Shown one piece after another: positions 62,259 to 63,477 of a DNA stretch of 64,000 nucleotides. The notes below the pieces were generated by a model, which made no database searches, was not told where the DNA came from, and saw nothing but the letters and a program-made list of their open reading frames with translations. Positions within the stretch are counted from its first letter, which is position 1. Each line of letters starts with the position of its first letter. Source of the DNA: a virus (Duplodnaviria > Caudoviricetes); IMG/VR virus record IMGVR_UViG_3300046739_000039, positions 32,001 through 96,000 of that record. One strand, given 5' to 3'. A program made the translations under genes and the position numbers.

Positions 62259-62300
62259 ACAGCCCCTGAGTTGACAGAAGTCAGTCAGGGGCTGTAGTCT
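62259..62300 (+). promoter_or_regulatory. Promoter of the NlpC/P60-rpf operon embedded in a hairpin
   Basis: TTGACA(62271)-N18-TAGTCT; ACAGCCCCTGA / TCAGGGGCTGT arms. Confidence 0.72.
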
Positions 62301-62374
62301 TGAGCCTGTTGTTACGAGATCGGGACATTCCCGAGAACGAATAACAGTCCTTGTTGTCTATTGATTGGACCATC

Positions 62375-62824
62375 ATGTCCGGTATAGGAAAGCGTGCACT
62401 TGTTACAAGCACCGTGATCTCTGCGCTAGTTGGATCTGGCCTTGCGATTGCGCCAAGCGCTGAGGCTGCTACTTCTCTGAAGTCGCAAGCTTACAGCACT
62501 GCTACAGCCCAGAAGGGCGACTGGTACAAGTGGGGCGCAGCAGGCCCTTCACGATTTGACTGCTCTGGTTTGCTTTACTACTCTTTCCGTAAGCACGGGA
62601 AGAACGTTCCGCGCACAGCAGCAAGTCAGTACAATTACTCAAAGCACATCAGCAAGAGTAGTAGGACCAAGGGGGACCTTGTGTTCTTCTATGGAAGCGG
62701 TGGCATTTACCATGTTGGATTCTACGCCGGGAACGGTTACATCCTTCACGCCCCGCACACTGGAGCAAAGGTTCGGACTGAAAAGATCTGGACTTCCAGT
62801 GTGAAGTACGGTCGCATCGGATAA
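62375..62824 (+). CDS. Secreted NlpC/P60 peptidoglycan endopeptidase
   Basis: Sec signal ending AEA; Y.WG..GP..FDCSGL, PRTA..Q, GDLVFF, HVG.Y.G and HAP. Confidence 0.92.
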   Translation: MSGIGKRALVTSTVISALVGSGLAIAPSAEAATSLKSQAYSTATAQKGDWYKWGAAGPSRFDCSGLLYYSFRKHGKNVPRTAASQYNYSKHISKSSRTKGDLVFFYGSGGIYHVGFYAGNGYILHAPHTGAKVRTEKIWTSSVKYGRIG

Positions 62825-62848
62825 TTAACCTCAACCTAAGGAATAAAC

Positions 62849-63442
62849 ATGAATAAGACACAAAAGATTATCAGTAGTACCGCCATTACCCTAGGCGCAC
62901 TCAGTATTGCTATTCCAGCTCAGGCTAGTTCTGTAAATTGGGATGCTGTTGCTCAGTGTGAATCCGGTGGTAACTGGCACATCAATACCGGGAATGGCTA
63001 CTATGGCGGATTGCAGTTCACACTCTCCACATGGCACGCTAATGGTGGAAGTGGTAATCCCGCTAATGCCTCCCGAGAAGAGCAGATTCGAGTAGCAGAA
63101 AACGTGCTTGCCTCACAAGGCATCGGAGCATGGCCTGTCTGTGGCGCTCGTGGGGGCTCTTCAAGCCACTCTACGGGGTCGTACAGCGCCCCAAAGCGCT
63201 CCTCCGTAGGAAAGGCACCCCAGAAGACTTACAAGGCTCCTGAGAAGCACCAGAAGGCGCTGAAGAATGACGTGCACACCACGTTTACCTATCGTGTTAA
63301 GGAAGGCGACACCCTGTCCTTCATTGGTTGGTACTTCAATGTAGACTGGCACAAGGTTTACAAGACAAACAAGAAGGTTATCGGTAACAACCCTAACCTC
63401 ATTTTTCCTGGTGAAGTTCTTACTCTCACCGTGAATTACTAA
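62849..63442 (+). CDS. rpf: Secreted resuscitation-promoting factor (Rpf transglycosylase + LysM)
   Basis: Signal peptide ending AQA; [29 protein letters not shown]...ASREEQI..AE.VL..QG.GAWPVC; Lys[10 protein letters not shown]...NPNLIFPG. Confidence 0.95.
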
Positions 63443-63446
63443 GCTC

Positions 63447-63477
63447 AAGAGGAGATCCTTCGGGGTCTCCTCTTTTG
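63447..63477 (+). terminator. Rho-independent terminator
   Basis: AAGAGGAGATCC-TTCG-GGGTCTCCTCTT-TT. Confidence 0.9.

Follow-up and report, generated by a model that had tools for sequence, protein, structure and literature searches.

The 64,000-nucleotide window analyzed here comprises bases 32001-96000 of the virus record IMGVR_UViG_3300046739_000039 of IMG/VR, which is 111,671 bp long and rated complete by CheckV. At positions 62259-63477 it carries one plus-strand transcription unit made up of a promoter, a structured leader, an NlpC/P60 endopeptidase gene, a gene for a resuscitation-promoting factor (Rpf) with a LysM domain, and a terminator. Very probably, this unit represents a phage-owned, host-derived, two-enzyme module for the cutting of peptidoglycan. 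The phage itself has a GC content of 48% and is of myovirus type, with genes for portal, major head, tail sheath and baseplate proteins, and its closest named relatives are the ~113-kb Streptomyces phages BRock, pSt2308, GiJojo, Alone3 and LuckySocke. At least ten BRock-like phages of Streptomyces, with genomes of ~110 kb, have kept the promoter position, leader and terminator of the unit.

The first of the two genes (62375-62824, plus strand) codes for a 149-amino-acid (aa) NlpC/P60 (C40) endopeptidase, recognized by PF00877 with an E-value of 6.8e-26 and 90.7 bits against a cut-off of 23. Its catalytic domain aligns with that of RipA (3NE0, 6.6e-18), with CD1368 and with other solved C40 enzymes. 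The catalytic residues C63, H113 and H125 coincide with those of RipA, and among 59 homologues C63 and H113 are invariant and H125 is nearly so. A signal peptide is predicted at residues ~1-31 with an AEA-A cleavage site, leaving a mature protein of ~118 aa which consists of the catalytic domain alone and is devoid of a wall-binding domain. An N-terminal coiled-coil or inhibitory region of the RipA type was not found in the phage protein by domain search and alignment. To the 157-aa C40 peptidases encoded on many Streptomyces chromosomes, the phage endopeptidase is 52-64% identical.

The second gene (62849-63442, plus strand) is preceded by a good ribosome-binding site, AAGGAA, located 6 nucleotides (nt) 5' of the ATG, and codes for an Rpf-LysM protein of 197 aa (PF06737 with 5.3e-35 and 120.4 bits against a cut-off of 27; LysM with 3.5e-6). 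The protein is composed of a putative signal peptide at residues 1-26 with the cleavage site AQA-S, an Rpf domain at residues 27-102, a low-complexity linker and a LysM domain at residues 148-193. LysM is a wall-binding domain, and Rpf proteins in general are weak remodelling enzymes, not lysins. Along its entire length, the Rpf domain can be aligned with the crystallized domain of RpfE from Mycobacterium tuberculosis (4CGE, 1.4e-38), at ~84% identity by our own count, including residues C37, E38 and C98; C37 and E38 are invariant in 59 homologues and C98 is nearly so. Cellular RpfA-like proteins share 52-55% identity with the full-length protein. Both open reading frames thus correspond to those given in a preliminary description of this DNA, which, however, had listed the Rpf gene ahead of the NlpC/P60 gene, while their actual order is the reverse.

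Each N-terminus runs from a basic n-region through a hydrophobic core to an Ala-x-Ala site, the alanines of which are conserved in the alignments, and sequence inspection of either N-terminus gave no lipobox cysteine and no twin-arginine motif. Together with the conserved cleavage sites, these features, as judged by eye and from hydropathy, agree with the earlier assignment of Sec-type signal peptides to both proteins. The earlier statement that the catalytic residues are intact is likewise upheld by their conservation among the homologues and by the alignments with RpfE and RipA. From sequence, we infer that both proteins are exported and that both are active enzymes. A complex prediction for mature NlpC/P60 and mature Rpf-LysM, using a 59-row alignment for each and run without controls, returned a score of 0.00, which speaks neither for nor against binding.

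Transcription of the unit would start from a host-type promoter, which was read from the sequence at 62271-62300 (plus strand) and consists of TTGACA at 62271-62276, an 18-nt spacer and TAGTCT at 62295-62300. The -10 hexamer agrees with the Escherichia coli consensus TATAAT at only three of six positions, and because of this weakness the site was missed by a generic promoter scan. Nevertheless, TTGACA-N17/18-TAnnnT is found at an equivalent distance from the start codon in all ten BRock-like phages, in which the surrounding DNA has diverged. The -35 element is held in the loop of a hairpin at 62259-62295 (plus strand; -28.2 kcal/mol, z-score -6.7), by far the strongest -35-embracing hairpin in the genome. 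A loop position of the -35 element is also seen in most of the ten phages, one hairpin arm lying 5' of the -35 and the other being formed by the spacer; the stem covaries between phages, as its arms differ in sequence yet stay complementary. Probably, this hairpin blocks read-through from upstream genes and insulates the unit, with the unit's own promoter overlapping it. At the 3' end, an intrinsic terminator is located at 63447-63480 (plus strand; hairpin at 63447-63474), comprising a 12-bp stem, a UUCG loop and a T run (-25.1 kcal/mol, z-score -5.6), and counterpart hairpins are present in BRock, pSt2308 and the IMG/VR relatives. The extended -10 element of the next unit, TGtTATACT (63490-63498, plus strand), follows at once, and TGnTAnnAT stands right after the terminator in all relatives. 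This next unit is hyp186-hyp123-endolysin in the relatives, while in the phage studied here an inserted HNH gene comes first. Since the pair has its own promoter, a terminator on its 3' side and a separate promoter for the unit that follows, it can be regarded as an insulated unit. The preliminary description, in which a self-contained two-gene unit with a near-consensus promoter of its own and a UUCG terminator had been proposed, is hence borne out by boundaries that are conserved in the ten BRock-like phages, save for the weak -10 hexamer.

Some further observations concern promoters in this phage more generally. A second -35-embracing hairpin lies at genome position 102976, and a recurring design is seen at 62259-62300, at 63447-63498 and at the equivalent positions of relatives, namely a terminator overlapped by a promoter, where the hairpin ending one unit provides the -35 region or the upstream edge of the promoter of the following unit. 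Matches to TTGACA-type promoters are clustered on the plus strand between 8.7 and 25.6 kb of the genome, before the window, with 16 matches in 17 kb, and host-type promoters seem to be in wide use by the phage. Promoter type was also considered as a clock for the timing of expression, but was rejected since host-type promoters occur genome-wide and the endolysin unit has one as well (extended -10).

Promoter and first start codon are separated by a structured 5' leader of 74 nt (62301-62374, plus strand), in which folding and conservation reveal a hairpin, an invariant element and a Shine-Dalgarno (SD)-like GGAC. The hairpin at 62306-62347, which had already been pointed out in the preliminary description, is real by its folding energy (-18.8 kcal/mol, z-score -4.3). 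The invariant element GTCCTTGTTGTCTA occupies 62347-62360, and an invariant GTCCTTRTTGTCTA on the 3' side of the leader helix occurs once in the genome. GGAC at 62367-62370, just before the start codon, can pair with UCC of the invariant element. For the outer helix (the equivalent of 62306-62347), 90% of cells are paired among seven close relatives, compared with 21-54% in slid controls, and one pair is changed on both sides in a compensatory manner and four on one side; this helix was set by hand and its support is modest, coming from seven sequences and one compensatory pair. RNAalifold, applied to ten leaders, recovered only a 4-bp helix sequestering the SD-like sequence. No Rfam family matched the leader at a meaningful score (E up to 10 in 61500-64000). 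Searching IMG/VR with a 15-mer of the leader gave two relevant loci, both known already, plus chance matches, and a metagenome scan added one further copy. The leader is conserved in phages only, and there at this operon only. Its conservation suggests tuned rather than maximal expression, and it may constitute a new cis-regulatory RNA for wall-hydrolase genes.

Judging by sequence relationships, both genes clearly derive from cellular families. In both protein trees, sequences from phage-sized contigs are split from cellular ones across a single branch, with Shimodaira-Hasegawa-like approximate likelihood ratio test (SH-aLRT) values of 91 and 98, as would be expected after an old capture and a long stay in the phage lineage. 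GC content at third codon positions (GC3) is slightly higher in both genes than in the structural genes. In Streptomyces, several wall hydrolases including rpfA are placed behind a cyclic di-AMP (c-di-AMP) riboswitch, and c-di-AMP terminates transcription of rpfA (PMC10117811). This riboswitch (RF00379, ydaO) was detected immediately 5' of seven of the 17 closest cellular NlpC/P60 loci scanned and immediately 5' of five cellular-type Rpf-LysM loci. At the phage unit, RF00379 was not matched at E-values up to 10 in 61500-64000, and it was also absent at the 11 phage loci scanned. The only matches of the Rfam scan in this region were four chance-level ones to unrelated small RNA and small nucleolar RNA families, with E-values of 0.22-4.1 and far below the gathering score. 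Hence, the earlier observation that no c-di-AMP riboswitch is visible at the unit holds, and the uncoupling from c-di-AMP control then suggested for the phage copy applies to both genes. As the riboswitch is absent, the host would be unable to silence the genes via the c-di-AMP route.

The two genes are adjacent in eight of nine BRock-like loci, and the remaining locus (L011) has kept promoter and leader with the Rpf gene alone. The phages in which the pair is conserved share only ~45-75% protein identity. At cellular loci, no Rpf gene was found within 4 kb of the NlpC/P60 gene in any of 77 cases, all of which were sampled from the NlpC/P60 side only. Moreover, five viral contigs from IMG/VR (L037, L039, L040, L042 and L045; ~62% GC) carry a single secreted fusion protein of 356-384 aa, in all five with the order signal peptide, Rpf, NlpC/P60 and LysM. 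The respective genes are located at ~5900-7100 in L037, L039, L042 and L045 and at 2568-3659 in L040. In L039 and L042, the fusion gene lies directly 5' of the large terminase gene; in L042 a holin-family gene follows ~3 kb downstream of the fusion, with the terminase gene between, and in L045 the fusion gene adjoins an endolysin gene. The fusion belongs to a large family, in which some forms contain an M23 domain in addition and which extends to some chromosomes. Members recur on 92-98 kb contigs of Streptomyces isolate assemblies, which may be phage-plasmids. Because the two activities are adjacent in one phage lineage and fused in others, they are likely used together, and on this sequence pattern their pairing in phages looks selected. 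Joint use matches the synergy of RipA and Rpf in mycobacteria, where RipA and RpfB have been reported to act synergistically (PMC2262848). As a separate observation, the large terminase of L042 (7708-9915) apparently holds an intein (Intein_splicing, 4.6e-10), situated between Terminase_6N and Terminase_6C.

The surroundings of the unit provide the setting in which its function has to be discussed. On its 3' side and on past base 64000, it is followed, in this order, by the HNH gene, by genes for two conserved soluble proteins, one Cys-rich and of 186 aa, the other of 123 aa, and by the gene for a 285-aa endolysin. The latter, a mu1/6-type enzyme matching phrog_17214 and phrog_29733, is encoded on the same strand as the pair at the window-equivalent position 64914-65771 (4914-5771 of L004) and starts 1.47 kb 3' of the Rpf stop codon. 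It has a PG_binding_1-like C-terminus and no signal peptide, and its catalytic part is related to the annotated endolysin of Streptomyces phage mu1/6. The order pair-hyp186-hyp123-endolysin is annotated in BRock, pSt2308 and GiJojo and recurs in IMG/VR relatives; an endolysin match is present in most of them, with varying endolysin type. Since the catalytic domain is only ~27% identical to that of the BRock endolysin, the endolysin has been swapped within a constant neighbourhood. The isolation from lysis genes that the preliminary description implied is therefore not real: the endolysin lies three genes downstream in conserved synteny, just past base 64000, and the apparent isolation is an artefact of the window edge. 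What was said there about tail genes, in contrast, is accurate, as these are 33 kb away. One of them codes for a 1009-aa minor tail protein (15340-18369; phrog_329) with an NlpC/P60 domain at residues 629-724 (PF00877, 3.9e-22), while residues 810-909 match phrog_12661, annotated as transglycosylase, a match that Pfam did not confirm. The tail-borne NlpC/P60 domain is only 35% identical to the secreted one, and the virion thus appears, as far as domain matches can tell, to possess a two-activity wall opener of its own, distinct from the secreted pair. That the pair might be virion components was considered and rejected: both proteins have signal peptides, their genes are remote from the structural genes, and the tail carries hydrolase domains of its own. 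With tail enzymes covering entry and a cytoplasmic endolysin covering exit, the exported pair can be viewed as a third set of hydrolases.

Regarding function, we tentatively favour a reading in which the pair would loosen the infected hypha's wall along with any walls directly touching it, thereby aiding release and local spread of progeny. On the molecular side, the reading is strong: both enzymes are encoded by one mRNA with the conserved structured leader, transcribed from the host-type promoter, and due to their Sec signal peptides they would arrive at the outer side of the wall before the infected hypha dies. There, the minimal NlpC/P60 protein would cut peptide stems as a D,L-endopeptidase, and the Rpf-type enzyme would cleave glycan strands, anchored to the wall by LysM. 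In this way, the pair would form the exported arm of a three-enzyme exit set beside the cytoplasmic mu1/6-type endolysin three genes downstream, and progeny might be released and spread locally with greater efficiency where the mycelium is thick or cross-walled. This reading is favoured because the module lies near lysis genes in several lineages and because its bond specificities match the non-exported endolysin, while wall binding by LysM favours action near the producer. Several observations nevertheless weigh against it. Rpf enzymes are mild by nature, and a complete endolysin is already present. The pair is not co-transcribed with this endolysin, as a terminator and a separate promoter stand between them in every relative. 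In agreement with the preliminary description, no holin is adjacent: the intervening proteins lack membrane segments, no holin family was recognized, and neither hydropathy nor PHROGs revealed a holin or other membrane protein between or beside the pair and the endolysin. Finally, in BE-cluster phages the gene for the homologous secreted NlpC/P60 protein is remote from the endolysin gene; in Coruscant, the two are located at 97 kb and 24 kb, respectively.

Other explanations start from the hosts of the next round of infection. The exported pair, or muropeptides released by it, might trigger germination or regrowth of neighbouring dormant spores or resting hyphae, which would then serve as new hosts for the progeny set free soon after. 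We consider such host wake-up rather unlikely, even though the ~84% identity of the Rpf domain to RpfE and the RipA-like nature of the NlpC/P60 enzyme would suit it, given the synergy between RipA and RpfB (PMC2262848). Rpf proteins do act in Streptomyces germination (PMC10117811), germinating spores have been reported as the stage most sensitive to phage (PMC7650747), the pair is surplus to the entry and exit hydrolases already at hand, and host control by c-di-AMP has been removed. On the other hand, anchoring by LysM favours retention on the wall of the producer and short-range action, and the module is repeatedly located near lysis genes. Moreover, deletion and overexpression of rpfA both delay germination of S. 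coelicolor (PMC10117811), which is at odds with a simple scheme of more Rpf giving more germination, and no such effect was reported in the literature found, the coverage of which was incomplete. Another effect on future hosts, which we regard as improbable, would be that enzymes co-released with the virions at lysis thin or open the walls of nearby stationary-phase hyphae and so allow adsorption and DNA injection. The pair would then be a soluble counterpart of tail-borne motifs, in parallel to the tape measure motif of TM4 (PMC1796659); tape measure proteins of mycobacteriophages commonly contain Rpf motifs, and the two activities of the pair are those suggested for the phage's own tail protein. 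However, the virion carries such domains already, and dilution after release would limit any effect.

Alternatively, the infected hypha itself might be the target, the deregulated hydrolases sustaining its wall expansion and metabolism and thus protecting phage yield. This would counter a host response of growth shutdown, dormancy or sporulation. A host-type promoter could fire on entry of the phage DNA, loss of the riboswitch specifically removes the off-switch of the host, and the conserved leader suggests tuned expression. In Rhodococcus infected with phage WC1, the ydaO riboswitch RNA and four rpf genes of the host are up-regulated throughout infection, and the authors suggest that dormancy is prevented by phage-driven rpf expression (PMC10986025). 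Still, autocrine growth maintenance seems doubtful to us, as host-type promoters are found genome-wide, including the endolysin unit, so that promoter type does not date expression, and there is no clear way in which two extracellular hydrolases alone could sustain growth. Last, the two genes might be passengers, i.e., captured host hydrolase genes kept by chance and of little benefit to the phage. Their cellular families and a GC3 somewhat above that of the structural genes are compatible with this, but genes, gene order, promoter, leader and terminator have all been kept at ~45-75% protein identity, catalytic residues are invariant, equivalent parts have become joined in further lineages of phages, and the single-branch split between phage and cell in each tree fits long residence, which makes mere carriage very improbable.

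Apart from the pair and the endolysin, some neighbouring and more distant genes deserve mention. The HNH homing endonuclease gene (63505-63954, plus strand; PF13392, 6.3e-9) is an insertion relative to BRock and pSt2308, lies outside the module and is missing at this place in the loci L001, L002, L009, L010 and L012. Its near-consensus extended -10 element is located only 6 nt before the ATG, which suggests that its mRNA may be leaderless. In GiJojo, an HNH gene (L007 3836-4348) is inserted between the module leader and the endopeptidase gene, with the leader motif partly repeated, and HNH genes are thus seen at different module edges in different phages. Four genes upstream of the unit lies a gene (60483-60863) whose product matches DUF1003 (1e-28) and has two membrane segments; six of nine relatives share this gene, and the subgroup of BRock, pSt2308 and GiJojo lacks it. 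Another small protein with two transmembrane segments, 87 aa long, is encoded at 28865-29128 after the tail fibre genes. These two proteins are possible but unsupported holin-like candidates. Elsewhere in the window (51822-52235), a 137-aa protein combines a lipoprotein-like N-terminus, a hydrophobic stretch ending in Cys, with a match to phrog_478, annotated as recombination directionality factor (7e-47), a combination that is odd for an apparently lytic phage.

Rpf proteins are the best-known protein signals ending actinobacterial dormancy, and dormancy is a main refuge from phages in soil. If host wake-up were true, the module would amount to viral manipulation of the bacterial seed bank by means of a secreted 'bacterial cytokine'. 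In any case, it offers a tractable test of phage tampering with host dormancy or wall growth, as the cultured phages BRock, GiJojo and pSt2308 exist. Even if the pair gave only extra help in lysis, a three-part division of wall hydrolases into tail-borne, exported and cytoplasmic ones would still result.

With respect to known systems, the Rpf-LysM protein resembles cellular RpfA of Streptomyces and other actinobacteria in its domain order and in the catalytic Glu and Cys pair, the catalytic domain being of the kind solved for RpfE and RpfC (4CGE, 4OW1). The phage copy differs, however, in that it is encoded without a c-di-AMP riboswitch, in second position of an operon behind NlpC/P60 and in a lytic-type phage of ~112 kb. 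Combined use of NlpC/P60 and Rpf enzymes with homologous catalytic domains is known for RipA with RpfB and RpfE of mycobacteria (PMC2262848, PMC2912383), but the phage endopeptidase consists of nothing but the catalytic domain and lacks the long N-terminal region of RipA, and the genes are neighbours in the phage and not in cells (0/77 loci). In its minimal architecture, the phage endopeptidase equals the small (~157 aa) riboswitch-controlled C40 peptidases of Streptomyces at 52-64% identity, while a different leader of 74 nt takes the place of the riboswitch; riboswitch-controlled wall hydrolases of Streptomyces have been described before (Haiser 2009; St-Onge 2015; reviewed in PMC10117811). 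Rpf-like sequence is also known in phages from the tape measure motifs of mycobacteriophages (PMC1796659), many of which match the Rpf domain found here. Yet those motifs are virion parts serving entry, whereas the present Rpf protein stands on its own, starts with a signal peptide and has its gene 33 kb away from those of the tail. No functional study of a free-standing secreted phage Rpf was found in the literature, as far as our incomplete coverage reaches. Among phage lysis enzymes, Lys44 of Oenococcus phage fOg44 is a Sec-exported endolysin, which reaches the wall without a holin by means of a cleavable signal peptide. In contrast to this type, the phage studied here also has a canonical endolysin without signal peptide, and its exported enzymes are host remodelling types in an operon of their own. 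The same pair in the same neighbourhood is present in BRock (gp44/gp43), pSt2308 and GiJojo (gp173/gp174), where the annotation of the proteins goes no further than peptidase, hydrolase or transglycosylase. New in the present analysis are thus the conserved architecture of the unit, the phage-specific leader replacing the riboswitch, the pattern of pairing and fusion, and the third set of hydrolases beside the lysis region.

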